Shown here piece after piece: positions 10,796 through 43,165 of a stretch of 45,615 nucleotides of DNA. The stretch comes from an uncultured bacterium. Its GTDB lineage: Bacteria > CAIJMQ01. The stretch is from NCBI GenBank assembly GCA_964573245.1, contig CAZNJA010000003.1, positions 1 to 45,615 of the forward strand, in the 5' to 3' direction. A program made the translations under genes and the position numbers. Each line of letters begins with the position of its first letter. Position 1 is the stretch's first letter. The notes below the pieces were generated by a model that worked only from the letters and a program-made list of their open reading frames with translations, had not been told where the DNA came from and did not search any database.

Positions 10796-11795
10796 AAACT
10801 TGAAGTAGTTTCTTAACTCTCCCCACATCCTCTGCAATCTGTTTTTGGGCGTCCTGGCGGGTTTTGAAAATTATTCGTGAGCGCAGTTTCTTAAAGAATA
10901 CAATTTCTACTTCCTTGTGATAAATATTTTCTTTTAATCCTATAACGTGGGCTTCTATTAATCTCTTTGGCTGGGTTGTTACGAAGAAGGCTGTTTTGCT
11001 CGCCCCGTTAGAAGTAAGTCCCGATTTTACCTGCTTCGCCTTCGTCTCATCAAGGCGGGTGTTGGGACTGCCCGCCATTGTATCAGTGGCGGGACTTCTA
11101 ATGGGGTCAACCCTCGCCCAACCCGCATATATGCCCTCAGGGGGCAAAAGTATCTCATCAAAATACATATTTGCCGTGGGAAATTTTATATCCTTGCTCA
11201 TACCCTTGCCTTCGGTTACTTTACCCAAAAGCGAATATTTTCTTCCCAGAAATTTTTCTATTCTTTCAAAACTGCCTTCGGTTATTAAACCCCTTATTTT
11301 TGTGCTGGAGACGGTTTCGCCTTCTACTGTCATAAGAGGGATGGCAGTAACGGAAAATCCAAACTTTTTGCCTTCTTCTTTAAGTAGTTGTATATCTCCG
11401 CGTCTGTCCTTCCCAAAACGGAAATCTTCTCCTATATAGAGTTCTTTTACGTTTAGTTTCTTAGCCAGAATCTTCTCTATAAAATCTTTAGCTTCCATTC
11501 CAACGGCATGTTTATTAAAATCCAGAACAAAAACATAATCTATGCCTAACTGCTTAAAATAATGTAGTTTCTGTTCAAGGGACATAATAAGCAGTTTTCC
11601 GTGTGAATAACTCAATAATTTTAAAGGATGAAACGAGAAGGTAATTACTGCCGAAGGTTCACCTTCGGCTTTTGCTTTTTTAACAAGAGTTTTTATAATT
11701 TTCTGATGTCCAAGATGTACCCCGTCAAAAAAACCTATGGTTAAGAAGATTGGTTCACTCTTTGCATATTCGTCGAAATTATTGAATATTTTCAT
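10794..11795 (-). CDS. ribF: bifunctional riboflavin kinase/FAD synthetase with in-frame insertion
   Basis: IGFFDGVHLGHQ, GEDFRFG, VSST.IR, FPTAN. Confidence 0.93.
   Translation of the reverse strand: MKIFNNFDEYAKSEPIFLTIGFFDGVHLGHQKIIKTLVKKAKAEGEPSAVITFSFHPLKLLSYSHGKLLIMSLEQKLHYFKQLGIDYVFVLDFNKHAVGMEAKDFIEKILAKKLNVKELYIGEDFRFGKDRRGDIQLLKEEGKKFGFSVTAIPLMTVEGETVSSTKIRGLITEGSFERIEKFLGRKYSLLGKVTEGKGMSKDIKFPTANMYFDEILLPPEGIYAGWARVDPIRSPATDTMAGSPNTRLDETKAKQVKSGLTSNGASKTAFFVTTQPKRLIEAHVIGLKENIYHKEVEIVFFKKLRSRIIFKTRQDAQKQIAEDVGRVKKLLQV
11003..11106. mobile_element. family A TIR element (104 nt) in-frame in ribF
   Basis: CCCCGTTAGAAGT...ACTTCTAATGGGG (12/13 inverted match); encodes PIRS...TSNG. Confidence 0.85.
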
Positions 11796-11808
11796 AACAT
11801 TAAAAAAT

Positions 11809-11842
11809 GATTGTACCGATTAAAACTCTGATTACACAGATT
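11809..11842. repeat. family B 13-mer pair
   Basis: GATTGTACCGATT 11809, GATTACACAGATT 11830. Confidence 0.75.
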
Positions 11843-11899
11843 AAATATTCTATTGTATAATACCCCGAAAACGACTTCAAAACAATAAGGAGGTCCGTA

Positions 11900-12685
11900 A
11901 TGAATATAAAAAAGTTAGTGATAATAAGCATTTTCTTAATTACAGGGCTGTGTATAGGTATTGGTTTAGCGCAGGCCGAAATTGACCAGAAAACAAGCCA
12001 GCTTATAGCCGAACTGGAAGCCAAAGCGGAAGCTATCAATAGTTATCTTGCGGATTCAACGATGAACATGGAAATGATAGGACAGAAGATGGTTTACACC
12101 GGGACACTTGCTTTCAAGAAACCGAACAAGAGCAGGCTGGAAATGAATACAAAGCTCGGCTCTATGGATATGAAGCAAATTATTGTATCCGACGGTAAGA
12201 CAGTATGGACTTATCAGCCCAATATGAAAATAGTTCAAAAAATGGATTTGGATAAAATTATTGCGGAAACGGGTAATGATAATAAACAAAAAAATGGAGA
12301 CCCTTCCGACCCGTTCCAGAATTTAGACCGCGACAGCATCACTTATATTCGCACGGATAAAATAGACGGTAAAGATGTATATATATTCAAGGGATATCCG
12401 CGAATGACTGCCGGAGCAGAGAATGCGCCTTTTGTCCCCGACAATATAGAAATAGGGCTTAACGCGGACAGCGGAATGCTTGGTAAAATGGTCATGTTCA
12501 ACAAAGAAGGCAAAGAAATGATGTCGCAGACCTATTCAAACATAAGATTGAATATAGATATACCGGACAGCAAGTTTGAATTTACGCCGCCCGAAGGAGT
12601 TCAGGTTATGGATATGACCGAAGGCACTGTTAATATGATGAAGCAGATGGGCGAGGACAAAGAACAGCCTGTTCTGCCTAATTGA
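11900..12685 (+). CDS. LolA-like outer membrane lipoprotein carrier family protein
   Basis: signal peptide, G...FKKPNK.R, IVSDGKTVWTYQP, F.FTPPEGV; AAGGAGG SD. Confidence 0.85.
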   Translation: MNIKKLVIISIFLITGLCIGIGLAQAEIDQKTSQLIAELEAKAEAINSYLADSTMNMEMIGQKMVYTGTLAFKKPNKSRLEMNTKLGSMDMKQIIVSDGKTVWTYQPNMKIVQKMDLDKIIAETGNDNKQKNGDPSDPFQNLDRDSITYIRTDKIDGKDVYIFKGYPRMTAGAENAPFVPDNIEIGLNADSGMLGKMVMFNKEGKEMMSQTYSNIRLNIDIPDSKFEFTPPEGVQVMDMTEGTVNMMKQMGEDKEQPVLPN

Positions 12686-12717
12686 AGTTTATTAGAGCCG
12701 GAATAAAGTTTTTGATG

Positions 12718-13692
12718 TCAGATATCAGGCGAAAAAACACGCATGTGATTTAAAACGATTCCGTTATCTGCTAACTTTTCGAGAGCTTTTTCTTCTCTGA
12801 TGCATTTGGCAACTGAAACAAGTTGTCCGTCTTCCGACATGATTTTGGCAATAAGCCCTTTGCTTAATTCGAAATTTCGAACCGAAATCGTTTTCTTATA
12901 TATCGGAGTCCCGCAAAAAGCGTCTTTTAAAAAATCATTTTTTATTTTAAGTTCGGGCAATTCTTTTAAAGCCGTTTTTATATCGAACAGATAATCTTTT
13001 ATATCTTTTTCGGACAAGATATCCTCAAGTTTTTTCGCATTCTTAATAGAAAAATTCCCGACTTTAGTTCTTCTTAAATCCGTTAAAACCGCTCCGCAGC
13101 GCAGTTGTTCTCCTATATCTTTAACCAAACTGCGTATGTATGTGCCTTTGGAACACGCAACTTTAAACCCTATTTCGAGAGAATTAGACCCCATTAGAGA
13201 TTTCACACTCGCCATTGGGCGAGTTATCTCTAACGAGGCAAGGGAATATATGGTAATTTCCCGTTTCTTTCTTTCGACTTCCTTACCTTTGTGGGCAAGC
13301 TGATAGAGTTTCCTGCCGTTTTGTTTTATAGCGGAATGCATCGGCGGAGTTTGTAAATATGTCCCTGTAAACTTTTTAAATGCAGTTCTTATCCGGGCTT
13401 CACTTACTTTAACGTTCTTGTTTTCCTTTATTACTTTGCCTTCTATATCGCCTGTGTCCGTAACCTTTCCTAAAAGCAAAGTCCCTTCATATTCCTTATC
13501 TTTACCTACCAGAAACTGAACAATTTTCGTGGCTTCATTAAGGCACATTGGAAGAAGTCCCGTAGCCATAGGGTCAAGCGTGCCGAGATGTCCCGCTTTT
13601 TTTATACGAAACTTTCGAGCTATTTTTTCTACAACTTTATAAGAAGTTAATCCTTTCGGTTTATCTACTAAAAGAATTCCGCTGAGCATCAA
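12718..13692 (-). CDS. truB: tRNA pseudouridine(55) synthase with in-frame insertion
   Basis: DKPKGLTS, KAGHLGTLDP.ATG, PP.HSA.K..G..LY, CSKGTYIRSL. Confidence 0.97.
   Translation of the reverse strand: MMLSGILLVDKPKGLTSYKVVEKIARKFRIKKAGHLGTLDPMATGLLPMCLNEATKIVQFLVGKDKEYEGTLLLGKVTDTGDIEGKVIKENKNVKVSEARIRTAFKKFTGTYLQTPPMHSAIKQNGRKLYQLAHKGKEVERKKREITIYSLASLEITRPMASVKSLMGSNSLEIGFKVACSKGTYIRSLVKDIGEQLRCGAVLTDLRRTKVGNFSIKNAKKLEDILSEKDIKDYLFDIKTALKELPELKIKNDFLKDAFCGTPIYKKTISVRNFELSKGLIAKIMSEDGQLVSVAKCIREEKALEKLADNGIVLNHMRVFSPDI
13189..13238. mobile_element. family A TIR element (50 nt) in-frame in truB
   Basis: CCCCATTAGAGAT...ATCTCTAACGAGG; inner hairpin ACTCGCC-ATTG-GGCGAGT. Confidence 0.8.
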
Positions 13693-13704
13693 GAGGAGTC
13701 TCCC

Positions 13705-15063
13705 TTATCTTTTATATACTATTTTATTACTTATCCAAACAACCGGATCCAACACACCCCTTATCGCTTTCTTCAATATCGGATGTTTTCCCACAAACCC
13801 AGCTATTTGGGGAGATGTTTTATAATATGTGTCGACAAAGATTTCTCCTATGGGATTAGTGAGCAAGTATTCATCCCTGAACTCTCTTAAAATATTCACT
13901 TCCGAAGTCATGTGCGAACCATAACATGCCGTGGCTATAAAACACCGTTTTCTGCTTTCTCCATCTCCACTATTATCAAGCCATATCAGTTCCAACCAAT
14001 CAGGTATACCATCTCCATCAGAATCATAGTTCGCATGTAATCCTGTGAAGTCCTGATTAGCCCTGTTGCCGTCGAGAGATATGTAAGAATAATTTTCAGG
14101 AAAGAAGTAATAACCTTCTAATAAAGGAGCAACCATATAGTCCCCCGTTTCCGACCGTCCTGTGAAACCATAATTGCCATCAGCTTCAGGATTTATATCA
14201 ATGTCCGCATCACCGCTTAAATTGAGATTAACGTCCGTAACATCAGCACTGCCACCAAGTAGAGTGACTTGACCGGAAATAATATAGGGAATATCTTCAA
14301 GCCCATTTCCCAAGTTGTAAAGTTCAGCAATTTCGTCAAGAGAAAGTGCTTTATTGAAAATCATTACGTTATCAAGAGAACCCTGAAAATTATCTCCGGT
14401 TGACCCCATGTAATTTATGGCTCCTATAAACAAATTAAAATTATTTGAATAATTTGCCATTACGCAGGTGGCAGTCTTTGTTCTCGACACTTGCGAACCA
14501 TCTTCACAGTACACAGAAGCAGAGATTGTGGTAGGTGATATTTGTTTGACGACTATTGTCCACATCGTCCAAGTACCGAGAGGTGGAAGACCCGCAGCAA
14601 AGGCTGTGGTTTCTGTCCAAATTTGATTGCTATCTGCGACATAACTAATAAAAGCACTATGCCAAGTAGTGTCAGTACCAAAACGAATTCCATTTCCATC
14701 ACCTCCGTCTGTACATGCAATAGTTTGTGTGCCACCGACATTTTCCTCTTTTACCCAAGCGACGATGCTAAAGTCACTCTGGAAAACTGATTGAAATGCA
14801 TTCCCCGTGTCAATGTAATCAGTAGTACCATTAAAATTAAAAGCTCCGTTGATTTTGCCGGTTGTATTAAGCACAGAAGTATTTTGCTGCGCTGTTCCAT
14901 CTGCATAACCCTGGCTATCAATAACTATATCATTGGTAGCATTGTCGTTCATCTTGTAATGAGCAACCAGATTATTTCCCAACGGCTGACCTGATAGGTT
15001 TTGATTTATTAATCCCACAATTGTGCAAAAAAATAAAATTGTAATAATTCTATTTTTATTCAT
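13705..15063 (-). CDS. secreted LamG-like jellyroll protein with CFI-box C-terminal domain
   Basis: signal peptide, LVAHY...F.G..DYI, F.G.LD.V.IFN.ALS..EI, DSDGDG, CFIATACYGS. Confidence 0.85.
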   Translation of the reverse strand: MNKNRIITILFFCTIVGLINQNLSGQPLGNNLVAHYKMNDNATNDIVIDSQGYADGTAQQNTSVLNTTGKINGAFNFNGTTDYIDTGNAFQSVFQSDFSIVAWVKEENVGGTQTIACTDGGDGNGIRFGTDTTWHSAFISYVADSNQIWTETTAFAAGLPPLGTWTMWTIVVKQISPTTISASVYCEDGSQVSRTKTATCVMANYSNNFNLFIGAINYMGSTGDNFQGSLDNVMIFNKALSLDEIAELYNLGNGLEDIPYIISGQVTLLGGSADVTDVNLNLSGDADIDINPEADGNYGFTGRSETGDYMVAPLLEGYYFFPENYSYISLDGNRANQDFTGLHANYDSDGDGIPDWLELIWLDNSGDGESRKRCFIATACYGSHMTSEVNILREFRDEYLLTNPIGEIFVDTYYKTSPQIAGFVGKHPILKKAIRGVLDPVVWISNKIVYKR

Positions 15064-15083
15064 AATTGATCGTTCCTCATTTT

Positions 15084-15800
15084 TTAAATAATAATTCCTA
15101 CTATATCTTTTTCTATTTCAATTATTTCTTCTATGCCTTTTTTCGCCAGTGAAATCATACTATCAAGCTCGGCATGGGAGAAAGGTTCTTTTTCCGCCGT
15201 GCCCTGAATTTCGACTATCTTGCCATTGCTTGTCATACAAACATTCATATCAACGTCTGCTTTTGAATCTTCACTGAATGCAAGGTCAAGCATCTTTTCT
15301 CCGCCAACAATTCCAACCGATACTGCCGCAAGATAATCTTTAATAGGCAGAGAATGTATGATTCGCTGATTCCTTAATTTCTTAAACGCTTCTACCAATA
15401 CTATAAATCCGCCTATTACTGAAGCTACCCTCGTCCCACCGTCTGCTTGTATCACATCGCAGTCAATTTTAATTGTTGATTCGCCAAAAGCTCTTAAGTC
15501 CGTTATTGTTCTCAAACTTCTTCCGATTAGCCGCTGGATTTCCTTTACTCTGCCGCCATCTATTAATTCATTGCGATAGTTTCTTACTCCCGTTGCTCGG
15601 GGAAGCATCCCATATTCCGCAGTAACCCATCCGCCACCTGTCCCTTTTAAAAAAAGAGGGACTCTGTCTTCGAATGTCGCAGTGCATACTATTCTGGTAC
15701 CACCCATTTCTATTAAACAGGAGCCCTCGGCATGTTTTATGTAATTTAGTTCCACCTTTATTTCCCGTATCTGGTTATTTTTCCTCTTATCAGTTCTCAT
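15084..15800 (-). CDS. rph: ribonuclease PH
   Basis: GWVTAEYGMLPRAT, EIQRLIGRSLR, DCDVIQADGGTR, EIQGTAE. Confidence 0.97.
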   Translation of the reverse strand: MRTDKRKNNQIREIKVELNYIKHAEGSCLIEMGGTRIVCTATFEDRVPLFLKGTGGGWVTAEYGMLPRATGVRNYRNELIDGGRVKEIQRLIGRSLRTITDLRAFGESTIKIDCDVIQADGGTRVASVIGGFIVLVEAFKKLRNQRIIHSLPIKDYLAAVSVGIVGGEKMLDLAFSEDSKADVDMNVCMTSNGKIVEIQGTAEKEPFSHAELDSMISLAKKGIEEIIEIEKDIVGIII

Positions 15801-15802
15801 TT

Positions 15803-15817
15803 TTTATCCTTTCTTTG
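15803..15817. repeat. 15-bp direct repeat, copy 1 (copy 2 at 16449-16463; partial copy at 17199-17210)
   Basis: TTTATCCTTTCTTTG identical at 15803 and 16449. Confidence 0.85.
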
Positions 15818-15826
15818 ATTTCATCT

Positions 15827-15861
15827 GATTACACAGATTTTAAAATAAGATTACAGAGATT
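15827..15861. repeat. family B 13-mer pair
   Basis: GATTACACAGATT 15827, GATTACAGAGATT 15849. Confidence 0.8.
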
Positions 15862-15886
15862 TCTTGAATCTAAGAACATGCCTCTT

Positions 15887-16438
15887 TTATTGAAAAGTTA
15901 ATTTATTGATTAAATCTTTATTTTCTTCCATTTCGGGAAGGCTGTATACCAATTTATTTAATTCATCAACAATTACATAAGCTTTCTTGTAAATTTCTTC
16001 AAGTTCTTTATTAGTTATTATCACAGAACCGTTGTTGGGATTTTTTGATTTTGGTAATTTCCCAGATAGTTCTGTCCCAAATATTTTTTCATTATCAAAT
16101 CTCGCCCAACAATAATGCGAAAAACGGTTTCTGAAGATTCTTAGTTTATCAATTCTATTAAGTAATGATAAAATCTCATCTGCAATTTTTCCAGAGATAA
16201 TTTTATTACGATACCGTATGTTTTGGATATTAATAGCATTTTTTATTTTTTCCATTAGCATGGTAACAGTCATTCTATCTGTATAGGTTCTTCCAAGAAA
16301 TTCAGGAGTAATCAATAATCTACTTAATAAAACTCCTAGTAAAAAATCAATATTAGAAAATTCAATTATTACTTTACCTATTAGCAGAAATTGTTCATTG
16401 GTCAACTCTGAATATTTCGAAGAATGATTTAGTGGCAT
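15887..16438 (-). CDS. hypothetical protein, possibly HEPN-like
   Basis: 183-aa AT-rich ORF, helical-looking, with an Rx4H motif (RNRFSH). Confidence 0.6.
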   Translation of the reverse strand: MPLNHSSKYSELTNEQFLLIGKVIIEFSNIDFLLGVLLSRLLITPEFLGRTYTDRMTVTMLMEKIKNAINIQNIRYRNKIISGKIADEILSLLNRIDKLRIFRNRFSHYCWARFDNEKIFGTELSGKLPKSKNPNNGSVIITNKELEEIYKKAYVIVDELNKLVYSLPEMEENKDLINKLTFQ

Positions 16439-16463
16439 TAGTTAAAAATTTATCCTTTCTTTG

Positions 16464-17195
16464 TTATGTTTTTATTTTTCCCAATTCTTTCAACTTTAAA
16501 AAACATTTCGCTGTTAATGCAACATCTGTTAAAGCATTATGTTTATCATATAAAGGTTTAAACGAACTAGCATAATCATAAAAACATTTTTTAAAAAGTT
16601 CCATTAGAGTAGGATATTTATAGTCACCATAAGAACTGGGAATTCTACAAAAGTTTGTTCCTATTTTCATAGTACAGATTTTATCCGTTTTCTCTAATTG
16701 TTTCTCAAAACTATTCCTTAAAAATTCGGCTTCCAAGATTGGTACATCAAAATCAATATTATGAGCAACTAAAATTTTTGCTCTTTTAATTGTTTCAATC
16801 AATTTAGTTAAGACAAGTTTAGGGTCAACTCCTTTTTCTTCCATGATTGCATTTGTAATTCCATGTATTGCTGTGGCTTTCGGAGGTATTTTGATATCCT
16901 GTTTTAGAATATATTCGTTGTGGGCTAATAATTTGCCTTCATTATCTAACAGTATCCATGCTAATTGAACAATATGTGGCCAATTATCCAAATTTTCGGG
17001 TTTAGAGTATCTATTTTGGGGAAGTCCTGTAGTTTCAGTATCAATTATAAGATATTTACCTTCAGTTCCGTTAGATTCCTCAAACGTAAGGTCAAGTTTT
17101 TCTGTCCACTCCTTTCTGACTCCCCTCATATCTGTAGATGATTTATAAATAGTAAAGATTGCAATCACTATAATTAACAATAACCAAAAAAACAT
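16464..17195 (-). CDS. DEDDh (DnaQ-like) 3'-5' exonuclease with N-terminal membrane anchor
   Basis: IIDTETTG, VAHNIDFD, HNALTD; N-terminal FFWLLLIIVIAIFTI. Confidence 0.88.
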   Translation of the reverse strand: MFFWLLLIIVIAIFTIYKSSTDMRGVRKEWTEKLDLTFEESNGTEGKYLIIDTETTGLPQNRYSKPENLDNWPHIVQLAWILLDNEGKLLAHNEYILKQDIKIPPKATAIHGITNAIMEEKGVDPKLVLTKLIETIKRAKILVAHNIDFDVPILEAEFLRNSFEKQLEKTDKICTMKIGTNFCRIPSSYGDYKYPTLMELFKKCFYDYASSFKPLYDKHNALTDVALTAKCFLKLKELGKIKT

Positions 17196-17197
17196 TT

Positions 17198-17788
17198 CTA
17201 CCCTTTCTTTTTTCTTTCGAAAATGTTTTTACCTTTACAATCTATTGCAACTATTACGGGGAAATCTTTTACTTCAAGTTCGCGTATAGCTTCGGTGCCG
17301 AGTTGGGGATATGCTATTACTTTTGCTTTTTTTACTTTTGTGGCAAGTAATGCGGCCGCACCACCCACTGCAAGAAAATAAACCGCTTTGTGTTTTTTTA
17401 TCGTTTTTATTACTTCTTCGTTTCTTTTGCCTTTACCAATCATTCCTTTTAAGCCCTTTTCCAAAAGCGGTATGGTATAAGAATCCATTCGCGAACTTGT
17501 AGTAGGTCCGCAGGAACCGATAGGTGCTCCCTCCTTGGCCGGTGTAGGTCCTGCGTAATAAATTATTTGATTTCTTAAATCAAGGGGCAATTTTTTTCTT
17601 TTCTTAATGGATTCCACTATTTTTTTATGCGCCGCATCCCGTGCAGTATATATAGTGCCGGTAATTAATACTATCTCGCCTGTCTTTAGAGAGATAATTC
17701 TATCTTCGTTTAAAGGAGTAGTTAACTTTTTGACTTTTGACTCCTGCCCGCTTCGCAGCAGGCGGGTTTGACTTTTAACTTTTTTCAT
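17198..17788 (-). CDS. class I fumarate hydratase/tartrate dehydratase beta subunit
   Basis: TARDAAH, GPTTSSRM, MIGKG, LGTEA. Confidence 0.93.
   Translation of the reverse strand: MKKVKSQTRLLRSGQESKVKKLTTPLNEDRIISLKTGEIVLITGTIYTARDAAHKKIVESIKKRKKLPLDLRNQIIYYAGPTPAKEGAPIGSCGPTTSSRMDSYTIPLLEKGLKGMIGKGKRNEEVIKTIKKHKAVYFLAVGGAAALLATKVKKAKVIAYPQLGTEAIRELEVKDFPVIVAIDCKGKNIFERKKKG
17724..17782. repeat. TGACTTT heptamer array with 24-nt family C insert (17743-17766), translated
   Basis: removing CCTGCCCGCTTCGCAGCAGGCGGG restores the TGACTTT periodicity. Confidence 0.8.
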
Positions 17789-18627
17789 ATTGTTGCGCTT
17801 TTATACCTCAATAAATAACACGACAAATCCACACATACCGGCAATCCGCCTATATGAGTAGGAAAATCTTTGATACTCACATTTAAAGCGGTTACTTTTC
17901 CGCCAACTCCTTGCGGCCCTATTTCTAATTCATTGATTTTTTTAAGAAGTTCTTTTTCAAGTTTTGCTATTTTTTTATCAGGATTCGTTCTATTAATAGG
18001 TCTTAAAAGCGCCTCTTTTGCTAAAAGCGTAACATTACTCATACTTCCACCCACGCCTATTCCTACAAAAAGCGGAGGACATGCATCCGGCCCTTTTTCT
18101 TTTACAACCTGCAAAACAAAATCTTTGACTCCTTCTAATCCTTGCGAAGGAGTAAGCATTTTTAATTTACCGGCGTTTTCAGAACCAAATCCTTTAGGCA
18201 TTACGGTTATCTTTATTCTTTCGCCCGGTGTAAATTTGTAATGAATAATTGCAGGAGTATTGTTTTTAGTATTAATTCTTTCAAAAAGAGGAGTTCTCAC
18301 AATCGATGCTCTTAATTTTCCTTCTTTTGTCGCTATACTGACGCCTTTATTTATGGCTTCTTCTATATTCCCTTTTACAAAAACATTTCTTCCAAGAGAC
18401 ACGAAAATTTCCTGTATACCCGTGTCTTGACATAAAGGCATTTTCTGTTTTGGGGCTATCTTTATATTCTCAAGCATCTGCTTAAAAATATATTTCCCGA
18501 GTTTAGAAGTTTCTTTGTAAGATGATTGAATAATCGCCTGTTTTACTTGTGACGGTAATTCATAATTAGCTTCTTTTATGAGTTTTGCAATAACGGGGGT
18601 AAATACCTTGGCGGATACTTCTCTCAT
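17785..18627 (-). CDS. class I fumarate hydratase/tartrate dehydratase alpha subunit
   Basis: PLCQDTG, PKGFGSEN, ACPP..VG.G.GG, GPQG.GG. Confidence 0.93.
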   Translation of the reverse strand: MREVSAKVFTPVIAKLIKEANYELPSQVKQAIIQSSYKETSKLGKYIFKQMLENIKIAPKQKMPLCQDTGIQEIFVSLGRNVFVKGNIEEAINKGVSIATKEGKLRASIVRTPLFERINTKNNTPAIIHYKFTPGERIKITVMPKGFGSENAGKLKMLTPSQGLEGVKDFVLQVVKEKGPDACPPLFVGIGVGGSMSNVTLLAKEALLRPINRTNPDKKIAKLEKELLKKINELEIGPQGVGGKVTALNVSIKDFPTHIGGLPVCVDLSCYLLRYKSATI

Positions 18628-18634
18628 TTAACTT

Positions 18635-20140
18635 TTATTTTGGATGACACGCCCGATTGATAGCTTCCAAATATGCTTTAGCAGATGCTTCTATAATGTC
18701 CGTTGAAGCATGCCTTCCCAGAAATTCTTTCCCCTGCACATTAACTTTGACGGCAACTTCGCCTAATGCCTCTTTACCGCCTGTAACCGACTTTATTGAA
18801 TAATCCAAAAGTCGGGTCTTTACTTTTGTGATTCTGTCTATGGCTTTGTAAACAGCATCAACAGGCCCGTCGCCGCATGAGGCCTCTTCCATTATTTTAC
18901 CCTTGTTCTTTATTTCCACAGTTGCAGTTGGAATAGTTTTGTTTCCGGTTACCACGTTCACATACTGTAAGGAATAAGTTTCCGGAACTTTAAAGATTTC
19001 ACCTTCCACAAGCGTTCTTAAATCCTCATCAAAGATTTCCCTTTTCTTGTCTGCCAACTTTAAAAATCTTTCATATGTTTTTTGGAAATCTTTATCTTTT
19101 ATCTTATATCCCAGTTTTTTCAATTTGTCTTCTAAAGCATGTCTTCCCGAGCGCGCAGTCAACACTATTTTATGCCCTTGGACTCCCACGTCCTCCGGTT
19201 TCATTATTTCATAGGTACGCCTGTCTTTTAGAATTCCGTCAACATGAATACCTGCAGAATGCGCAAAAGCGTTGTCACCCACAATGGCTTTATTTGGCTG
19301 CACATATATTCCCGTAAGGCGGGATACAAGCCGCGACGTTTTGTAAATTTCCTTCGTGTTTACATTGGTGTTTTTATTCAAAAGATTTTTTCTTGTATGA
19401 ATTGCCATAACCACTTCTTCTAAGGATGCATTCCCCGCTCTCTCGCCGATTCCGTTCATCGTGCATTCAACCTGTGTGGCTCCGGCTTCAACTGCAGTAA
19501 TGGAATTGGCCGTCGCAAGCCCTAAATCATCATGGCAATGGACAGAAATGACTGCTTTATGTATATTGGAAACATTCTCTTTTATATATTTTATAATTCT
19601 GTACATTTCCATAGGCAAAGCATACCCTACGGTATCAGGTATATTGACAACGGTTGCGCCGGCATCAATCACCGATTCTACAACTTTACACAAGAATTCC
19701 AGCTCCGTTCTCGAGGCATCTTCCGGTGAAAATTCTATATCGCTGGTATATTTCTTGGCATACTTTACTGCCTCGACCGCCATTCTTAGAATTTCTTCGC
19801 GCGCCTTTCCGAACTTGTATTTCATGTGTATTGGCGAAGTTGCCAAAAATACGTGAATCCTGGGGCTTTTTGCTTTCTTAACCGCTTCCCAGCAAGCATC
19901 AATATCTTTTTTTAATGAACGAGCAAGACCGGCAATAGTGCATTTTTTAATTTTGGAAGCCACTAATTTAACCGCTTCTATTTCACCCGGAGAACTTATA
20001 GGAAATCCTGCTTCAATAATATCAACTCCCAATCTTTCCAACTGCTGGGCTATTTCCAATTTACTCCTGGGATTAAATCCACAGCCAGCGGCCTGTTCGC
20101 CTTCTCTTAAACTTGATTCGAATATATATACCTTTTCCAT
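18635..20140 (-). CDS. leuA: 2-isopropylmalate synthase
   Basis: LREGEQ, IEAGFP, HCHDDLGLA, GIGERAGNA, C-terminal GDGPVDA regulatory domain. Confidence 0.93.
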   Translation of the reverse strand: MEKVYIFESSLREGEQAAGCGFNPRSKLEIAQQLERLGVDIIEAGFPISSPGEIEAVKLVASKIKKCTIAGLARSLKKDIDACWEAVKKAKSPRIHVFLATSPIHMKYKFGKAREEILRMAVEAVKYAKKYTSDIEFSPEDASRTELEFLCKVVESVIDAGATVVNIPDTVGYALPMEMYRIIKYIKENVSNIHKAVISVHCHDDLGLATANSITAVEAGATQVECTMNGIGERAGNASLEEVVMAIHTRKNLLNKNTNVNTKEIYKTSRLVSRLTGIYVQPNKAIVGDNAFAHSAGIHVDGILKDRRTYEIMKPEDVGVQGHKIVLTARSGRHALEDKLKKLGYKIKDKDFQKTYERFLKLADKKREIFDEDLRTLVEGEIFKVPETYSLQYVNVVTGNKTIPTATVEIKNKGKIMEEASCGDGPVDAVYKAIDRITKVKTRLLDYSIKSVTGGKEALGEVAVKVNVQGKEFLGRHASTDIIEASAKAYLEAINRACHPK

Positions 20141-20148
20141 AGAGTTGG

Positions 20149-20177
20149 ATTTTACTAAAAAAAGGGGGAATCGTCAA
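20149..20177 (-). promoter_or_regulatory. sigma70-type promoter of leuA
   Basis: TTGACG-N17-TAAAAT ending 8 nt before the ATG. Confidence 0.65.
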
Positions 20178-20263
20178 AGATACTAAAAGGTTAATAGCAT
20201 ACTGACTTTACGCCAGGGCCATATTAACTCTTATTAATTCCATCAAATTATATTCGTGAAATG

Positions 20264-21595
20264 TTACTCCCCCGAGATCATGACTTCTCTCACTTTTATC
20301 GTCGGCGCTATGCTTCCGGGCTCTGCCCGATAATCAGACGATATTTCTTCGATATTTTTCAAAAGTTCAAGAAAATTTCCCCCAATCATCGTCTCCTTTA
20401 AAGGATAAGCAATTTGCCCGTTTTCTATTTTAAATCCGAAATCAATCGGCTGAGAAAAATCGCCCGACGCCGCATCAGGATGAATGGATGTGTTGTCAAT
20501 ATATATTCCTTCTTTTATTTCACTTATTATCTGTTTGGAAGTCCGTTTGCCTAATTGCGGAACAAGATTTGTCGCGGAAATTCCTCCGCTAAAAGTCGCG
20601 TGTCCTGTGTTTTCCTCTCCGCTTTTTCCTGAAGTGTAAGAATTATGTAAATAAGTTTTTAATACACCCCTTTCCAAAAGGGTGATTTTCTTGTGGGCAA
20701 CCCCTTCCCCATCAAAAGCGCCGGAATAAATTCCGCCCGGAATTAAGGGGTCATCAATTATCGTTAAATTTTGGGATGCTATTTGCTTGTTTTTCATATT
20801 GCATAAAAAGGAACGTTTTCTTTGAATATCTTCTGCGTGGCAAGCTCCTGTAAGAACTACAAACACAGACATAGAAGCTAAAGGGCCTAAAACTATAGGA
20901 AATTTCCCGCTCTTACACTTTTTTGCGCCAATTTGTCTTCTTGCCTCATTGGCAACTTTTTTACCTAATCCCAAAGGCGCAAAATCCTTTAACATTTTTG
21001 CTTCATCGAAATCAAAAGCGCTGCCTGTTTCGCCGCCATCACGCAATACTCCGAATAAACTCATGGAAATATGAGTGCCATTGCTTCCCGCCTCTATGCC
21101 ATTAGTATTAGCCAAAAATGTTTGTCCCGAATTCAAAGAAATGTCGCCGGAAACAACAATTTTTGATTCGGTCTCATGTGCTTCTTCAATTGCGTCAGTT
21201 GTCCATTTGAAAACTTTTTCTTTCTCAATAGAAAAAATTTCCTCATCAAATAGGTTTTCTACCTTTGGATATTTTGAAGGAAAAGGGAGCGTTCTAAAGT
21301 CCGGGTCGGGATGAGCGTTGGGAGTTATCGATGATATCATTTCTACGGCTTTTTCAATATCTTTTTCGTCGTAAACAGTAGAGAGATACCTGCCTCCACC
21401 TCCTTTTAGAAATGCGATTATAGAAATGTTTTGGGTGTAATGCTCTGAAGACGAGAAAATTTGATTCTTTTCTATTGCCACTTCAACATTATTGTCTCTG
21501 GAAACAACAACTTGTGCCTGGTCAATTGGCTTTTTCTTCAAAAGTTCACATGCCTTAACAGCCCACTTTTCAATCTCTTTATTTGTTCTTTGCAT
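20264..21595 (-). CDS. pmbA: PmbA/TldE family protein
   Basis: FDGEG, G.LKTYLH, TGHA, GDFS; follows tldD; longer ORF start runs through repeats. Confidence 0.88.
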   Translation of the reverse strand: MQRTNKEIEKWAVKACELLKKKPIDQAQVVVSRDNNVEVAIEKNQIFSSSEHYTQNISIIAFLKGGGGRYLSTVYDEKDIEKAVEMISSITPNAHPDPDFRTLPFPSKYPKVENLFDEEIFSIEKEKVFKWTTDAIEEAHETESKIVVSGDISLNSGQTFLANTNGIEAGSNGTHISMSLFGVLRDGGETGSAFDFDEAKMLKDFAPLGLGKKVANEARRQIGAKKCKSGKFPIVLGPLASMSVFVVLTGACHAEDIQRKRSFLCNMKNKQIASQNLTIIDDPLIPGGIYSGAFDGEGVAHKKITLLERGVLKTYLHNSYTSGKSGEENTGHATFSGGISATNLVPQLGKRTSKQIISEIKEGIYIDNTSIHPDAASGDFSQPIDFGFKIENGQIAYPLKETMIGGNFLELLKNIEEISSDYRAEPGSIAPTIKVREVMISGE

Positions 21596-21720
21596 TTTTA
21601 GTTTTAATTTGTCATTTTGTCCCGAAGCTCCGACGTAACATCGGAGTTCGGGATTCCTTGGGAACATTTTGAATTTTCAATATGTATATTTAATTTTTGA
21701 TATTTAATATTTGATTTATC
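21596..21720. repeat. T-rich heptamer-like tract with nested hairpin (21620-21653)
   Basis: TCCCGAA-G-CTCCGACGTAACATCGGAG-TTCGGGA. Confidence 0.7.
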
Positions 21721-21722
21721 TT

Positions 21723-23120: not shown

Positions 23121-23266
23121 GTTTAACCCGTTTTAGACGCTGTATTTTTTTGTTTCCAAAGCACTGATATAAATTATAACCTGCCTAAGAAGGTTTACAT
23201 TGTCTTCTTATTAAAAAAAATTTCTAAGCAGGCCTACTTGACAGAGCGAAAAAAGCGCTGTGAAAT

Positions 23267-23587
23267 TTATCGTATTTCAAAGATGAATTTCGTATGTCTT
23301 CCGAGCCCGATTATATCGCCGCTGTTCAATTGCCTTTTTTCTTCTATTTTTTCACCGTTTAAATAAGTGCCGTGCTTGCTGCCTGTATCTTCAATATAAT
23401 ACGCGTCCGTTTGTTTATCATGAGTAATTATAGAATTTTGGCGAGAGACACCCAGGTCATCTTCTACAAACACAGGAACAGCATGCCCCCTTCCGATATT
23501 ATTGGGGTTTTCCGGGTCAAGAATGAATTCTTTCCCGCTATTTGATATTAAAACCGCCTGTTTTTCCTTTTTAAACCAGTTAACCAT
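23267..23587 (-). CDS. FHA domain protein
   Basis: IGR, VSRQ, D.GSKHGTYLNG, L.SGD.I.LG. Confidence 0.88.
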   Translation of the reverse strand: MVNWFKKEKQAVLISNSGKEFILDPENPNNIGRGHAVPVFVEDDLGVSRQNSIITHDKQTDAYYIEDTGSKHGTYLNGEKIEEKRQLNSGDIIGLGRHTKFIFEIR

Positions 23588-23687
23588 ATTGTCTGTTTTA
23601 AGTTGATTAAATTATATCATACACCGCAAAATCAAGGCACATTAATAATACTTTGTCATAGCTTTGTTATCTGATAAAATAGACGCG

Positions 23688-25415: not shown

Positions 25416-25417
25416 CC

Positions 25418-26764: not shown

Positions 26765-26778
26765 TTTTCTTCCCTTTA

Positions 26779-26915
26779 CCCCGTTAGAGATAGGTCGCCA
26801 TTATGTCTATTATGTATGGCGACCGTAACTTCTCGGGAGTATTTGTATGTCACTTTTTATCTCTTTCATTTTGAACAATGCAATCCAAATCTTATCGCCA
26901 TTATCTCTAACGGGG
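26779..26915. mobile_element. family A TIR element (137 nt) at the aroQ/argH junction
   Basis: perfect 14-bp TIR CCCCGTTAGAGATA/TATCTCTAACGGGG; inner hairpin GGTCGCCAT...ATGGCGACC; supplies the aroQ TAG. Confidence 0.88.
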
Positions 26916-27347: not shown

Positions 27348-27379
27348 TTTAAAGACTCCATTTTAGAATAATATAAACT

Positions 27380-27439
27380 GATTACACAGATAAAACCAAA
27401 TTTTTAATCGGTGTAATCTTTTTAAAAATCCGAGTAATC
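27380..27439. repeat. family B 13-mer cluster
   Basis: GATTACACAGATA 27380, AATCGGTGTAATC 27406, AATCCGAGTAATC 27427. Confidence 0.8.
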
Positions 27440-27480
27440 TTGTTACACCACCAATTAAAGCAGAAACACCGATTTCTTGC

Positions 27481-27510
27481 AAACCCTGAACCACATAGGA
27501 TTCAGGGTTT
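27481..27510. repeat. hairpin element AAACCCTGAACCA-x-GATTCAGGG, copy 1
   Basis: 10-bp stem; same arms at 30066-30108. Confidence 0.75.
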
Positions 27511-33146: not shown

Positions 33147-33164
33147 GCCGCATCAATCTCAAAA

Positions 33165-37190: not shown

Positions 37191-37451
37191 GTGTTTAAAA
37201 AAGATAATTCCATGCCGGACCAAAAGAAATTTCAAGGCGAGATAAAAATCGACGAAGAGAAGTGCAAAGGTTGTAAAATTTGCGTTAACTTCTGCCCTAA
37301 CGGGGCCATCGGAATATCAGAGAAGATAAATAAAAAAGGAGTTTACCCTGTCCAAATAAAAGACAAAGGCAAATGCACAGGATGCGGGATTTGTTTTCTT
37401 GTGTGTCCTGATGTGGCTATAGAAATCTACAATGAACCCCGTAAGAAATAG
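37191..37451 (+). CDS. 2[4Fe-4S] ferredoxin-like delta subunit of 2-oxoacid:ferredoxin oxidoreductase
   Basis: CKGCKICVNFCP and CTGCGICFLVCPD. Confidence 0.9.
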   Translation: MFKKDNSMPDQKKFQGEIKIDEEKCKGCKICVNFCPNGAIGISEKINKKGVYPVQIKDKGKCTGCGICFLVCPDVAIEIYNEPRKK

Positions 37452-39558
37452 GCTCCAACATAACATGAAACCTGTATCCCATGAACACAGCAATACCACC
37501 GACAAACCACAAAGCAAATATCAAACAATTTCTAACGGGGTGAACCCCAAACAAAAGAACAAACAGAGTAAAAGCCTTCTTCTTTCCTGGCAGGGAGCGC
37601 TTTCTTTACTCATTTTGCTCTGGGCCGCCCTGCTGCTAAAAGGCATATTGGCTTCAAACAACAATGAAATTTTTGCGTCTTTATGGCTGCAGTTTTTCTA
37701 CATAATCTGGCACATATTCGCTCTCATATTATTAGTTTTTCTTTGTTGGGGATTAGGCAGGAAAATCTCTAAAGGTTTAAAAATCTCTTATTCGGCTCTT
37801 TCGGAAGAATTTCCTTTTGCAACTTCGTTAGGATTAGGCGCTCTTTCCCTTATCATACTTATTCTGGGAGCAATAAAACTTTTCCATCCCACGGCAGTAT
37901 ACATAATAACTCTTGTTGTTCTTATATTAGTAATCGGGGAACTAAAAGAAATCACCTGCCACATCCGTAAATCCTGGGAAAAAACAAAAGACATCAAGTT
38001 AGATGTCATATCAACTATAACTTTGTGCTTAATAGGATTGACAGCCTTAATACTTTTAACCGGGGCTTTTACTCCGCCCATCTCTTATGACGGGCTTGCT
38101 TATCATTTGGGCGTGCCAAAAACTTATATCAACGAATACGGCATTGTTTCCCTGCCTTATCATGTTTATTCAAATTTTCCTTTCAATATGGAAATGCTTT
38201 ATGCCTATTCCATTCTTCTTACAGGTAATGAAATTCTCGCAAAAATGCTCCATTTTTTGGCAGCTATACTGATATGTTTTGCGCTTTATTCTTTCGGGAA
38301 AAAATATTTCGACCAAAAGATCGGCATTTTATCAGCAGCAATATTCATAAACATTCCACTCGTAGGCCAACTGTCCGCGACTTGTTATAACGATTTGGGG
38401 CTGGCATTATTTATGGTTTTATCAGTATTCGCCTTTATAAACTGGCTTTCGTCCCCCGGCAAAGAAAAGTCCGGTTGGCTGCTTTTGTGCGGTATTTTGA
38501 CAGGACTTGCCCTGGGAACGAAATATTTTGCCATTACATTCCTGTTTATATTTCTTATCCCGGCCATTGGAATTGCGAGCATATTATCCCCGGACTCAAA
38601 ACGCAGAACTTTTTGCCTAACCAAAAATTTAATATTATTTGCGGGTTCGGCTTTTTGCGTATTCCTGCCCTGGATGCTGAAAAACCTAATTATTACGGGA
38701 AATCCGGTTTTTCCCTTCGTTTACCCCATATTAGGAGGCGGAAATTGGACAACAGCCCATTACCAAAGATTCCTAAACGTGCATTTGCCCAATATATTTA
38801 CATTCAAAGAATTTTTCCTCCAATTATGGAAACTTCTCTCAAACCACATGTTCGGCTCATCTTTTGCTTTTGTCCTGCCTCTTCTTTTTATCCTGAAAAA
38901 AATAGACTCAAAAATAAAAATTCTGCTTATCTACGCCTCATACTATTATCTGATATGGTTTTTCTTTACACACAGGGTAGATAGATTTATCATGCCCATA
39001 TACGTCTTTCTATCACTCATAGTCGCATACACCTTGTTCCATCTGCCCAAGATATTAAGAACATTTGCAGGGAGCCTGTTAACAATATTTATTGCTTTCA
39101 ATCTGTTTACCCTTATGGTTATCGCAGAAAACAGCGACTTTGCAAAAGCATTTACCAGCATAAAGAGCAAGGAAACGTATTTGGAAGAAAATTTATATTA
39201 TTATCCCGCGATAAAATACATCAATGAAAAACTGCCGCATTCGAGTAAAATCCTTTTTGTGGGAGATAACCAGACTTATTATTGCGAAAAACCGCTTGTT
39301 TCGAATTCGCCTCTGGACAAAAACATAATAGTGGAAACAGTCCGCAACTCAAAAAACGGCGAGGATGTAAAAAACAAATTGAAAACCATGGGAATAACGC
39401 ATATTTATTACAACAGTTCGGAAGTTAAAAGAACACAGGATACGTACCGCAGTTTTGACTGGAGCGACAAAGAAGAATATACTTTTATTGATTTCATAGA
39501 AAATTACACGCAAAAAATATTTGAGAAAAACGGATGTATTATATTCGAAATAAAATAA
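37432..39558 (+). CDS. polytopic GT-C-type (ArnT/PMT-like) glycosyltransferase
   Basis: many TMs, YD...YHL..PK, G...G.A...KY, PW..KN...TGNP.FP. Confidence 0.75.
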   Translation: MNPVRNRLQHNMKPVSHEHSNTTDKPQSKYQTISNGVNPKQKNKQSKSLLLSWQGALSLLILLWAALLLKGILASNNNEIFASLWLQFFYIIWHIFALILLVFLCWGLGRKISKGLKISYSALSEEFPFATSLGLGALSLIILILGAIKLFHPTAVYIITLVVLILVIGELKEITCHIRKSWEKTKDIKLDVISTITLCLIGLTALILLTGAFTPPISYDGLAYHLGVPKTYINEYGIVSLPYHVYSNFPFNMEMLYAYSILLTGNEILAKMLHFLAAILICFALYSFGKKYFDQKIGILSAAIFINIPLVGQLSATCYNDLGLALFMVLSVFAFINWLSSPGKEKSGWLLLCGILTGLALGTKYFAITFLFIFLIPAIGIASILSPDSKRRTFCLTKNLILFAGSAFCVFLPWMLKNLIITGNPVFPFVYPILGGGNWTTAHYQRFLNVHLPNIFTFKEFFLQLWKLLSNHMFGSSFAFVLPLLFILKKIDSKIKILLIYASYYYLIWFFFTHRVDRFIMPIYVFLSLIVAYTLFHLPKILRTFAGSLLTIFIAFNLFTLMVIAENSDFAKAFTSIKSKETYLEENLYYYPAIKYINEKLPHSSKILFVGDNQTYYCEKPLVSNSPLDKNIIVETVRNSKNGEDVKNKLKTMGITHIYYNSSEVKRTQDTYRSFDWSDKEEYTFIDFIENYTQKIFEKNGCIIFEIK
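37437..37540. mobile_element. family A TIR element (104 nt) at the ferredoxin/GT-C junction
   Basis: CCCCGTAAGAAAT...ATTTCTAACGGGG, TGAA on both flanks; encodes PVRN...ISNG. Confidence 0.85.
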
Positions 39559-39567
39559 TTAAATAAT

Positions 39568-39666: not shown

Positions 39667-39667
39667 A

Positions 39668-40732: not shown

Positions 40733-40739
40733 ACAAAAT

Positions 40740-41480: not shown

Positions 41481-41567
41481 TTACGCAGATTAACAACTAT
41501 AAATTACACAGATTAGAAAACAATAAATCTTTAATCAGTGTAATCGTTTTCAAAAATCCGTGTAATC
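41479..41567. repeat. complete family B cluster (2 direct + 2 inverted 13-mers)
   Basis: GATTACGCAGATT 41479, AATTACACAGATT 41502, AATCAGTGTAATC 41533, AATCCGTGTAATC 41555. Confidence 0.88.
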
Positions 41568-41577
41568 ACTTATTAAC

Positions 41578-42120
41578 ATGAGAGAAGAAATAATTTTTGC
41601 AGGGTCCGGCGGACAGGGTATTGTGACAATGGGCAAGGTCCTGGCTTGGGCAGGCCTAAAAGAGAATAAATTCGTTACATATATTCCCTCATACGGCGCG
41701 GAAATGCGCGGCGGAACCGCAAACTGTTCGGTTATCGTTTCGGACAGCGAAATCGCCTCCGCATTAATCGAAATCCCAACCGCCCTCATAACTATGAATA
41801 ATGCTTCGCTTAACAAATTCGAACAAAAACTAATCAAAAACGGACTTCTTGTAATCAATTCATCGCTTGTGGACAGAAAACCTTCCAGAACAGATATCCA
41901 AATACTCTACGTTCCCGCAACCAAAACAGCGGAAGAAATAGGTCAAATAAAAACGGCAAACATGGTGGCTTTGGGCGCTTACATAGCCAAAAGCAAAATC
42001 ATTTCCCGTGAAAGACTGGAAGAATCCTTAAGCAGTGTTTTCCCAAAAGCGACAAAAGAAATTTTAGACATAAATATCCAAGCACTGAAAAAAGGGGAAG
42101 AAATTGGTTCATCCCGTTAG
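41578..42120 (+). CDS. 2-oxoacid:ferredoxin oxidoreductase gamma subunit
   Basis: AGSGGQG, PSYGAEMRGG, NMVALGA. Confidence 0.93.
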   Translation: MREEIIFAGSGGQGIVTMGKVLAWAGLKENKFVTYIPSYGAEMRGGTANCSVIVSDSEIASALIEIPTALITMNNASLNKFEQKLIKNGLLVINSSLVDRKPSRTDIQILYVPATKTAEEIGQIKTANMVALGAYIAKSKIISRERLEESLSSVFPKATKEILDINIQALKKGEEIGSSR

Positions 42121-43165
42121 AAATAAGATGAAAAAAATATCCCTTTCCCGTAATAATACCATCAATATTTCTAACGGGGTAAAAAGAACCAACCATAAAG
42201 GATTATTGAATATCATTGCCAATTTCAAAAAAGGCTCGGTTCTTGTAATCGGCGACTTGATGCTCGATGAATTCCTTTTCGGGAAAATAGAAAGAATCTC
42301 CCCCGAAGCGCCTGTGCCTGTGGTAAAAATAAAAAACGGCGAAAGAAAACTTTCATTGGGCGGAGCCGCAAACGTTGCATACAACATCAAAACACTCGGG
42401 GTAAAACCGCTTCTTGCAGGAGTTATCGGCAACGACCTGCAGGGAAAAGAACTGCTGAAACTAATGAAAAATTCCGCCCTTGACACAAGCGGAATAATAA
42501 CCGAAAACAAAAGGCCCACCACACACAAATTAAGAGCCATCGCCCACTCGCAGCAAGTGATAAGATTAGACAAAGAAACAAACGAAGAAATCTCGCCCTC
42601 ATTAGGCAAAAAAATAACGGACTACATAAAAAAACATATCCCAAAAGTAAACTGCGTCGTAATATCCGATTACGGCAAGGGCTTATTGACCGGGAAACTA
42701 TTAAGCGAAATTTTCAAAATTGCAAAAAATTCCAAAACCAAAGTCCTTGTTGACCCTACATTGAAAAATATGATGCATTACCGCGGCGCCTACCTGATAA
42801 AACCAAACTTAAAAGAAGCATTGCAAATACTGGCTAAAACAAAAGATATATCAAGAAACCAAATAGCGCGCGAACTTAAAAAACGATTGGGATGCGAAAA
42901 CATACTGCTCACCTGCGGAGAAGAAGGAATGATACTACTTCAAAAAAATCAGGCAACGGATATCCCGTCGTTAGAAAAAGAAATTAACGATGTAACAGGC
43001 GCAGGCGACACGGTAATCGCAACAGTCGCGCTGGCGCTTTCCGCAGGCGCTTCATTAAAAGAATCCGCCGTCCTTTCCAACCTCACCGCAGGCATAGTAG
43101 TCAGCAAACTCGGCACTGCGGCAGTAACACAAAAAGAACTGGCGGAAATAATAACAAAGTCATAA
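42104..43165 (+). CDS. rfaE1: D-glycero-beta-D-manno-heptose-7-phosphate kinase (start may be ATG 42128)
   Basis: GD.MLD, RISPEAPVPV, GGAANVA, SDYGKG, DVTGAGDTV. Confidence 0.93.
   Translation: MVHPVRNKMKKISLSRNNTINISNGVKRTNHKGLLNIIANFKKGSVLVIGDLMLDEFLFGKIERISPEAPVPVVKIKNGERKLSLGGAANVAYNIKTLGVKPLLAGVIGNDLQGKELLKLMKNSALDTSGIITENKRPTTHKLRAIAHSQQVIRLDKETNEEISPSLGKKITDYIKKHIPKVNCVVISDYGKGLLTGKLLSEIFKIAKNSKTKVLVDPTLKNMMHYRGAYLIKPNLKEALQILAKTKDISRNQIARELKKRLGCENILLTCGEEGMILLQKNQATDIPSLEKEINDVTGAGDTVIATVALALSAGASLKESAVLSNLTAGIVVSKLGTAAVTQKELAEIITKS
42112..42179. mobile_element. family A TIR element (68 nt) at the gamma subunit/rfaE junction
   Basis: TCCCGTTAGAAATA...TATTTCTAACGGGG; supplies the TAG of the upstream gene. 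Confidence 0.85.

Follow-up and report, generated by a model that had tools for sequence, protein, structure and literature searches.

Several kinds of repeat and selfish gene invite comparison with the elements described here. Insertion sequences (IS) and miniature inverted-repeat transposable elements (MITEs) are characterised by terminal inverted repeats, target duplication and deletion derivatives. The hairpin repeats of the REP/REPIN and IS200/IS605 systems are thought to move as single-stranded DNA (ssDNA) with the help of a dedicated small enzyme, the REP repeats bearing a GTAG tag. Rickettsia palindromic elements are palindromic repeats tolerated in frame in the housekeeping proteins of a small genome and have, to our knowledge, no encoded enzyme. 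GIY-YIG homing endonuclease genes are selfish and either free-standing or intron-borne; we know of no GIY-YIG protein in the catalogued IS families, and of no strand-transfer activity in this nuclease domain. The closest published analogue is the Ssn system, in which genes for single-domain GIY-YIG ssDNA nucleases are flanked by NTS/SRM hairpin repeats, an order of repeat, gene and repeat that its authors liken to an insertion sequence, and in which NTS seldom lie inside genes (2% in the studied strain) (Chenal et al. 2025, PMC11893778). Here, we analyse a family of short inverted-repeat elements that has five copies in a 45,615-nucleotide stretch (the window) of contig CAZNJA010000003.1, from an uncultured bacterium of a Ratteibacteria-like genus.

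Sequence comparison indicates that the five elements in the window probably derive from a compact GIY-YIG inverted-repeat element of ∼275–285 bp, as MITE-like copies without its gene. Their identification as gene-less derivatives is well supported, and from the same comparisons we infer that the nuclease may be what moves the element.

The family resembles Ssn in having a single-domain GIY-YIG protein of ∼90 residues (83–86 amino acids in P0001, the protein of the parent element) and a hairpin-forming repeat that stands on both sides of the gene and is scattered through the genome. It differs in that its two ends are 13-bp terminal inverted repeats that pair with one another, the open reading frame (ORF) runs through one end, gene-less copies lie in frame in genes, and flanks may be duplicated. 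The degenerate SRM pattern given in that source (PMC11893778) matched none of 86 full-length elements and none of 53 arm pairs, and matched the source genome twice, compared with 2–5 times in shuffles. As in the REP/RAYT and IS200/IS605 systems, the repeats are hairpin-based and the derivatives outnumber the gene; unlike REP/RAYT, the enzyme is a GIY-YIG nuclease and not a Y1 protein, the tag is GTAA or GTAC, and the RAYT loci of the genus have no arms. In-frame residence in protein genes (ribF, truB and, genome-wide, 20 copies spanned by an ORF) is shared with the Rickettsia palindromic elements, from which, as these are described, the present family is set apart by an identifiable autonomous parent and by interiors that vary around a conserved architecture. 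With IS and MITEs the family has in common terminal inverted repeats, an excess of identical short flanks in full-length copies, and internal-deletion derivatives in which both ends are preserved; unlike IS-derived MITEs, the ∼280-bp parent encodes a GIY-YIG domain alone and no known type of transposase. GIY-YIG homing endonuclease genes are likewise selfish nuclease genes of the same superfamily, whereas here there is no DNA-binding extension and no intron, the insertion sites are many and unrelated, and miniature derivatives exist. A full-text literature search, covering sources available in part, returned no description of a bacterial GIY-YIG gene that has miniature derivatives and is bounded by terminal inverted repeats, and the family appears to be undescribed in print.

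Paired arms and a probable nuclease-encoding parent element

The window constitutes contig C3 of an assembly of 1.46 Mb in 110 contigs (G000; 93% complete by marker genes), which was compared with three congeners (G001–G003) and a genome of the sister genus (G004), with G005 added for truB. Within the window, the arm core CCCCRTTAGA matches 11 times with at most one mismatch, against 3.9 matches expected, and none of 100 shuffles attains 11. At the same tolerance the G000 assembly has 91 left and 90 right arms. The genome-wide scan suggested by an earlier, sequence-only reading of the window found these arms to be paired, with 53 left–right pairs less than 400 nt apart compared with 0–1 in five shuffled genomes, and two pairs in the reverse order. 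The arm is 13 nt long, consisting of CCCCGTTAGA followed by GAT, AAT or AGT, and the final three bases match between the arms in 42 of the 53 G000 pairs. Immediately outside the arms, the G000 sequence logo reads T, T, N, A/G.

A re-scan of the window recovered the five copies that the sequence-only reading had listed, all of them 3n+2 in length. Copy 1 (11003–11106, 104 nt) and copy 2 (13189–13238, 50 nt) have arms located by motif scan; copy 3 (26779–26915, 137 nt, minus strand) has arms, a remnant of the 5′ part of the GIY-YIG gene and a hairpin at the arm; in copy 4 (37437–37540, 104 nt) the arms pair and nothing else does; and copy 5 (42112–42179, 68 nt) has an outer stem. Copies 1, 2, 4 and 5 are listed without strand. 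All five carry paired 13-nt ends in which (C/T)CCCGTTAGA is followed by three covarying bases, and the readings PVR..SNG, PLE..LTG and PR-stop claimed for them were borne out by translation. A sixth copy had been claimed at 4230–4420, and this proved not to belong to the family, being another hairpin repeat without arms. It comprises ∼3.5 tandem units (∼50 nt each) of a different double-hairpin repeat that has more than 20 further matches, on at least 15 G000 contigs.

In the congener G003, a unit of 280 nt with the same arms (L057:1450–1729) encloses a complete GIY-YIG ORF. The product, P0001, is 83 amino acids long as stored and 86 with read-through, and matches PF01541 over residues 1–69 with 60–61 bits. 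The frame stays open across the right arm and runs on into a pseudopilin gene, such that the complete nuclease ORF is fused in frame to the pseudopilin as its leader. Long copies enclosing a nuclease, for which the sequence-only reading had advised a search, are present in G003 and at well over a hundred public loci. The parent element is ∼275–285 bp long with 13-bp terminal inverted repeats, and its sole gene encodes a predicted single-domain GIY-YIG nuclease of 83–87 residues; the ORF starts ∼10–20 nt inside the left repeat and crosses the right one (..RFLSLTG), in most cases ending at a flanking TGA or TAA. The best PDB matches of P0001 are UPF0213 proteins, headed by BH0048 (E = 7e-9), and a search of the ESM Atlas returned generic small GIY-YIG clusters and nothing else.

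Relatives of P0001 accounted for 562 of 600 candidate stretches in metagenome contigs and 526 of 599 in genome contigs. We analysed the best 80 loci from each set, which have 64–83% amino-acid identity to P0001, except for one 100% match (L170). The record titles of the relatives name Omnitrophota, Ratteibacteria, many Patescibacteria lineages, Planctomycetota, Elusimicrobiota and Thermodesulfovibrionia, as well as Bdellovibrionales, Desulfobacteraceae, Syntrophales, Clostridia and Gammaproteobacteria. Both arms were visible in 40 of 41 loci inspected, the stretch at L118 having ended before the right end, and a crude script detected the order arm core, GIY ORF, arm core at 120 of the 160 loci. 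Many public copies sit on the start codon of a host gene, so that the nuclease ORF ends in ATGA. The 4-nt flanks are identical in 30 of 88 distinct full-length copies, against a permuted mean of 9.1 and a maximum of 18 (2000 permutations); the identical pairs are TGAA (16 copies), TAAA (five), TTTA (four) and five others once each. One single-cell genome has two copies that are 94.7% identical, with unrelated flanks.

The interiors of some gene-less copies retain part of the nuclease gene. Several interiors of ∼125 nt hold a ribosome-binding site, an ATG and ∼20 codons of the GIY-YIG protein, and HMMER matched the interior at L019 (contig C6 of G001) to positions 1–23 of the GIY-YIG profile. 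A blastn-short search of G000 with the full-length element gave one weak match; we therefore aligned the 5′ part of the gene with the interiors by the Smith–Waterman method with shuffles, which gave z = 22.7 for L019, 18.7 for C56:4634 and 15.5 for C13:1166, followed by 5.5 and 4.8. In the window, copy 3 aligns on the minus strand with the 5′ part of the full-length element (z = 4.7) as a decayed remnant. None of the five window copies holds a nuclease ORF and, as the sequence-only reading had stated for transposases, the contig of the window has no nuclease or transposase gene. Given that the window copies lack the ORF and that G000 has no intact arm-flanked nuclease gene, they are taken to be non-autonomous derivatives and not full members. 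G000 does encode five or six other small GIY-YIG genes, none of them arm-flanked. At C14:13250–13456 and C1:10068–10280, small GIY-YIG genes lie between a tRNA gene and a repeated tRNA 3′ end, as if integrated, and the GIY-YIG gene at C27:11452 has its own, different inverted repeats.

Folded as ssDNA and compared with shuffles, copies 1, 2, 3 and 5 gave z-scores of −4.6 to −7.4. Copy 1 forms an outer stem and two hairpins (z = −7.4), copy 2 an outer stem and one hairpin (z = −5.3), and copy 5 an outer stem (z = −5.1); copy 4 forms the outer stem alone (z = −1.3, not significant). Covariation in the full-length element was assessed across 86 distinct copies, chosen by their arm cores. RNAalifold placed an outer stem between columns 1–13 and 275–287, the ends of the element, and an inner stem of 13 bp between columns 100–112 and 261–273, pairing codons ∼24–28 with the last codons. 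Over the 25 pairs of these two stems, 97.3% of cells are paired and double changes occur at 14 pairs, with 178 double-change cells compared with 48 in shuffles (none of 500 attaining 178) and 8–23 when the partner is slid. Positions 1 and 11–13 and the whole of the second, inner helix are free of the arm-core selection, and in this inner stem synonymous third positions covary. The rarity of G–U pairs suits DNA rather than RNA, without being decisive. Across these sequences, the nuclease ORF appears to be under purifying selection, with variability of 0.18, 0.11 and 0.39 at the first, second and third codon positions and an open frame in 85 of 86 copies.

Interiors, lengths and insertion sites

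The sequence-only reading held that the interiors show no similarity. This is correct among the five window copies and does not extend to the genome, where 34 of 48 G000 interiors cluster by similarity, at scores exceeding the maximum among 400 shuffled pairs. The shared architecture is arm, hairpin, GTAA or GTAC, and spacer. In 30 of 51 G000 copies, a perfect hairpin with 6 bp or more begins no further than 4 nt from an arm, compared with 0–6 copies when the interiors are shuffled; GTAA or GTAC comes after many of these arm-adjoining hairpins, as it does in the parent element, and their stem sequence varies by copy. An inner hairpin is present in window copies 1–3, that of copy 3 (GGTCGCCAT..ATGGCGACC) adjoining the arm and being followed by GTAA. 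At nine sites common to G000 and G001, flank identity is 68–88% and interior identity ranges from 0.93 down to 0.42. At four of the nine (L021, L031, L034 and L035) the interior scores within ∼0.1 of a flipped control, with arms and flanks conserved. The earlier description of the interiors as exchangeable cargo fits these four sites, at which they differ, and has to be qualified by the architecture that they follow. Interiors turn over and arms stay, and re-insertion, conversion between copies or slippage are all conceivable routes.

Minimal palindromes of 28–30 nt, made of two abutting arms, occur at C50:9415 and C47:9368 in G000 and at L022 and L025 in G001. At C47:9350–9447 of G000, a 29-nt two-arm palindrome is nested in an element of 98 nt that is in turn carried in frame by a long ORF. 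A GC-rich hairpin of the CCTGCCCGCC..GGCGGGCAGG type is repeatedly nested against an arm (C17:9831–10113, C5:18133–18440 and C80:2931 in G000; L023 and L035 in G001); elements stand in tandem at these loci, and the hairpin has the appearance of a second repeat, one that uses the first as its target. Two candidates for long copies were rejected. A 311-nt unit of G001 is two adjacent elements, and a 1.5-kb difference at C76:2201–3740 of G000 is an unrelated two-gene indel without arms, comprising a lipoprotein-like gene and a gene for a putative outer-membrane protein of 298 amino acids, where G001 has a 126-nt element alone.

Lengths of the form 3n+2 are found in 36 of the 53 G000 arm pairs (binomial p = 5e-7), and their share depends on context. 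Where an open frame spans the element and extends 50 codons or more to either side, 19 of 20 copies are 3n+2; where a frame runs through with fewer than 50 codons on one side, the count is 9 of 14; and among the 19 copies with no open frame through them, eight are 3n+2, seven 3n and four 3n+1. The difference between ORF-spanned and no-frame copies is significant (Fisher p = 4e-4). A length constraint belonging to the element, as proposed in the sequence-only reading, is not supported by these counts. The rule is a residue of purifying selection inside genes, the split by context indicating that selection removes frame-breaking insertions. A length L of 3n+2 keeps the frame if the insertion adds L+4 nt, and is compatible with an element plus a 4-nt duplication because L+4 is then a multiple of three; a gain of L+1 or L−2 would be equally suitable.

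In the window, copy 1 lies in frame in the riboflavin-kinase domain of ribF (10794–11795, minus strand), where it contributes ∼34 extra residues; the Pfam Flavokinase match in this RibF covers 149 residues for a profile of 124 positions. Copy 2 is in frame within truB (12718–13692, minus strand). Copy 3 lies between an argH-like lyase gene (25418–26764) and aroQ (26907–27347), and one of its arms supplies the aroQ stop codon in the PR-stop reading. The insertion point of copy 4 is the start codon of a gene for a PMT-like glycosyltransferase (ORF 37432–39558), and this copy is the only one of the five with identical 4-nt flanks: the TGAA on its left (37433–37436, plus strand), which overlaps ATGAA, is repeated at 37541–37544 and is a candidate target duplication. 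Copy 5 occupies the junction of a POR gamma-subunit gene (41578–42120) and a PfkB-family sugar kinase gene (ORF 42104–43165), and an ATG in its interior could be the start of the kinase. A solo arm-like 10-mer at 37296–37305 (minus strand, one mismatch) has no partner and may be due to chance. Elsewhere in G000, four of 18 prepilin-like genes have an element exactly in the leader (C4:23505, C13:1166, C17:24155 and C53:8880). Here, G-F-T is found at both junctions and the left arm encodes P-L-E, mimicking the G|FTxxE cleavage motif.

The 13-nt-arm pattern was found in G000 and all three congeners, and was absent from 37 further relatives searched. With one mismatch allowed, forward and reverse arms number 50 and 51 in G001 (controls 4 and 4), 74 and 75 in G002 (controls 2 and 4), 33 and 30 in G003 (controls 3 and 0), and 4 and 9 in the sister-genus genome (controls 2 and 3). 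The ribF site is empty in G001 and G003 and is occupied by the 104-nt copy in G000 and, at the same codon, by a copy of 71 nt with another interior in G002. The truB site is filled in G000 alone, the orthologues of G001, G002, G003 and G005 being without copy 2. For the 30 G001 arm pairs that were fetched, G000 is empty at L016, L017, L023, L029, L032 and L043, retains a remnant of 38 nt at L018 and carries a copy at nine or more others. The search for empty sites advised in the sequence-only reading was thus successful in ribF, in truB and at no fewer than six sites filled in G001, and these filled and empty orthologous sites support its central proposal of a non-autonomous mobile family with conserved ends, inserted in frame in genes. 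With the four genomes about equally distant from one another, the polarity of the ribF insertion is not readable. As the genomes have diverged by ∼20% and the empty sites hold 3–8 nt of unalignable filler, no duplication can be read there. Contigs from four of 15 sequencing runs, labelled salt marsh metagenome, were compared with positions 10500–27500 of the window; none joins across an element, which is uninformative on excision or rare variants, and copy 2 is covered unchanged by contigs of three runs. A 36-nt skip inside copy 1 in three runs was set aside, having sides of just 28 nt and probably deriving from a paralogous copy.

Possible mechanism and competing explanations

In our reading, the derivatives would have lost the gene and kept the outer stem, usually with a hairpin in place of the inner stem. 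The nuclease might recognise the folded, single-stranded element and cut at its ends, a step on which we hold the chances to be roughly even. Movement would then resemble that of hairpin-dependent elements such as IS200/IS605 and REP–RAYT, with insertion at TNNA-type targets (TGAA, TAAA, TTTA), often at start codons, and within genes the survivors would be the frame-preserving insertions. As G000 has no intact parent, its copies are probably immobile relics or reliant on a nuclease supplied in trans.

Several observations weigh against this account. An intact arm-flanked nuclease gene is absent from G000, at 93% completeness, and from G001, and the four genomes of the genus together hold one intact parent copy. 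Apart from the interiors with the z-scores given above, similarity to the 5′ part of the gene is not significant, and most of the long G000 interiors have no detectable similarity to it; window copies 4 and 5 also lack the inner hairpin. The empty ribF sites imply a net gain of L−2 and not L+4. Among the public loci, 40 of 160 were not picked up by the crude script, and identical flanks occur in just about one-third of the full-length copies, a proportion that may itself be inflated, since right flanks supply the stop codon and may be rich in TGA and TAA. The covariation test of the outer helix is partly biased, pairing at columns 2–10 being favoured because the sequences were chosen by arm cores.

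Some of the same observations would accommodate a different origin, in which the arms are an independent palindromic repeat, each arm being half of a homing site rather than a transposon end. The nuclease would cut the palindrome where it is uninterrupted, the GIY-YIG gene would be copied in by repair as a homing passenger, and the miniatures would spread otherwise. The uninterrupted 28–30-nt palindromes, the element nested in another at C47:9350–9447, and the interiors swapped between fixed arms at the four common sites and in ribF, as repair conversion would give, are consistent with such a passenger, as is an NCBIfam match to group I intron endonucleases that is weak (29 bits, under the 56-bit cut-off). 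We nevertheless consider a homing passenger unlikely, as the whole unit, arms included, is missing from the empty ribF and truB sites, full-length copies, whose 4-nt flanks are identical more often than expected, are spread over many unrelated loci, and no separate mobiliser of the palindrome was found in the genus genomes. The short GC-rich hairpins and conserved tag of the interiors also recall REP/REPIN-type repeats, and four RAYT-like Y1 genes are encoded in G002; if a RAYT (Y1) transposase moved the elements, the GIY-YIG gene would be irrelevant to them. However, the G002 RAYT loci are all without arms, and the arm repeats are abundant in G001, which has no Y1 match. The Y1 matches of G000 and G003 are to a protein of 437–446 amino acids with a Y1-like domain that lacks HxH, and one G003 arm pair stands just upstream of the degenerate 446-residue gene. 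With a tag of GTAA or GTAC and not GTAG, and with arms that accompany the GIY-YIG gene at public loci of many phyla, movement by RAYT is very improbable.

The exact fit of many intergenic copies between a stop codon and the ribosome-binding site that follows it, and the promoter-like TATAAT strings in some G000 interiors, would suit immobile inverted repeats that serve the host, be it as boundaries of invertons, as protein-binding sites or as RNA stems, and that surround ordinary local sequence. We attach hardly any weight to this explanation, given that the in-frame copies of ribF and truB are missing from orthologues, that the same ends accompany a nuclease gene in distant phyla, and that an Rfam scan of the window gave zero matches. 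Invertons were rejected specifically, as at none of the nine G000/G001 sites, compared on contigs only, did an interior align better when flipped. Integron attC sites, whose boxes are ordered RYYYAAC .. GTTRRRY, were also rejected: the GTTAGA core is suggestive, but the elements read GTTAGA .. TCTAAC, and only two pairs have the opposite order compared with 53.

The degenerate Y1-like protein and the RAYT-like genes met in these searches have their own contexts. The 437–446-residue protein is conserved between G000 (C12:23931–24167; L046 1426–2736) and G003 (L048), and consists of a degenerate Y1-like N-terminal domain, a membrane segment and a C-terminal domain that is common to the product of the neighbouring gene. 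The RAYT-like Y1 genes of G002 (L045, L047 and L049), found in no other congener, adjoin prepilin-type (H-X9-DG-like) genes.

Significance

Returning to the GIY-YIG element as the parent of the miniatures, we raise tentatively, and at somewhat less than even chances, the broader possibility of a new class of prokaryotic mobile element that would rank among the smallest autonomous ones. Such an element would combine a length of ∼280 bp, a multi-stem single-stranded junction, a bare GIY-YIG nuclease in the place of a transposase, landing at TNNA sequences, often at start codons, and the shedding of miniatures without the gene, by which protein loops and prepilin leaders are rewritten; the replacement of interiors would represent nuclease-triggered conversion between copies. 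If this were true, interior turnover would amount to cassette exchange, a process not described for MITEs.

If the nuclease does move the element, it would be a DNA transposon of much smaller size and simpler enzymology than any insertion sequence in the catalogues, and would offer a testable model for the multiplication of Ssn-type hairpin repeats. Pairs of a small nuclease and a folded DNA site may also serve as sequence- and structure-specific DNA tools, as has been proposed for Ssn. For the organisms themselves, the elements insert peptides in essential enzymes (RibF and TruB) and in prepilin leaders, and gene calling and protein annotation are therefore affected in Omnitrophota-like bacteria, Patescibacteria and other uncultivated lineages with small genomes.

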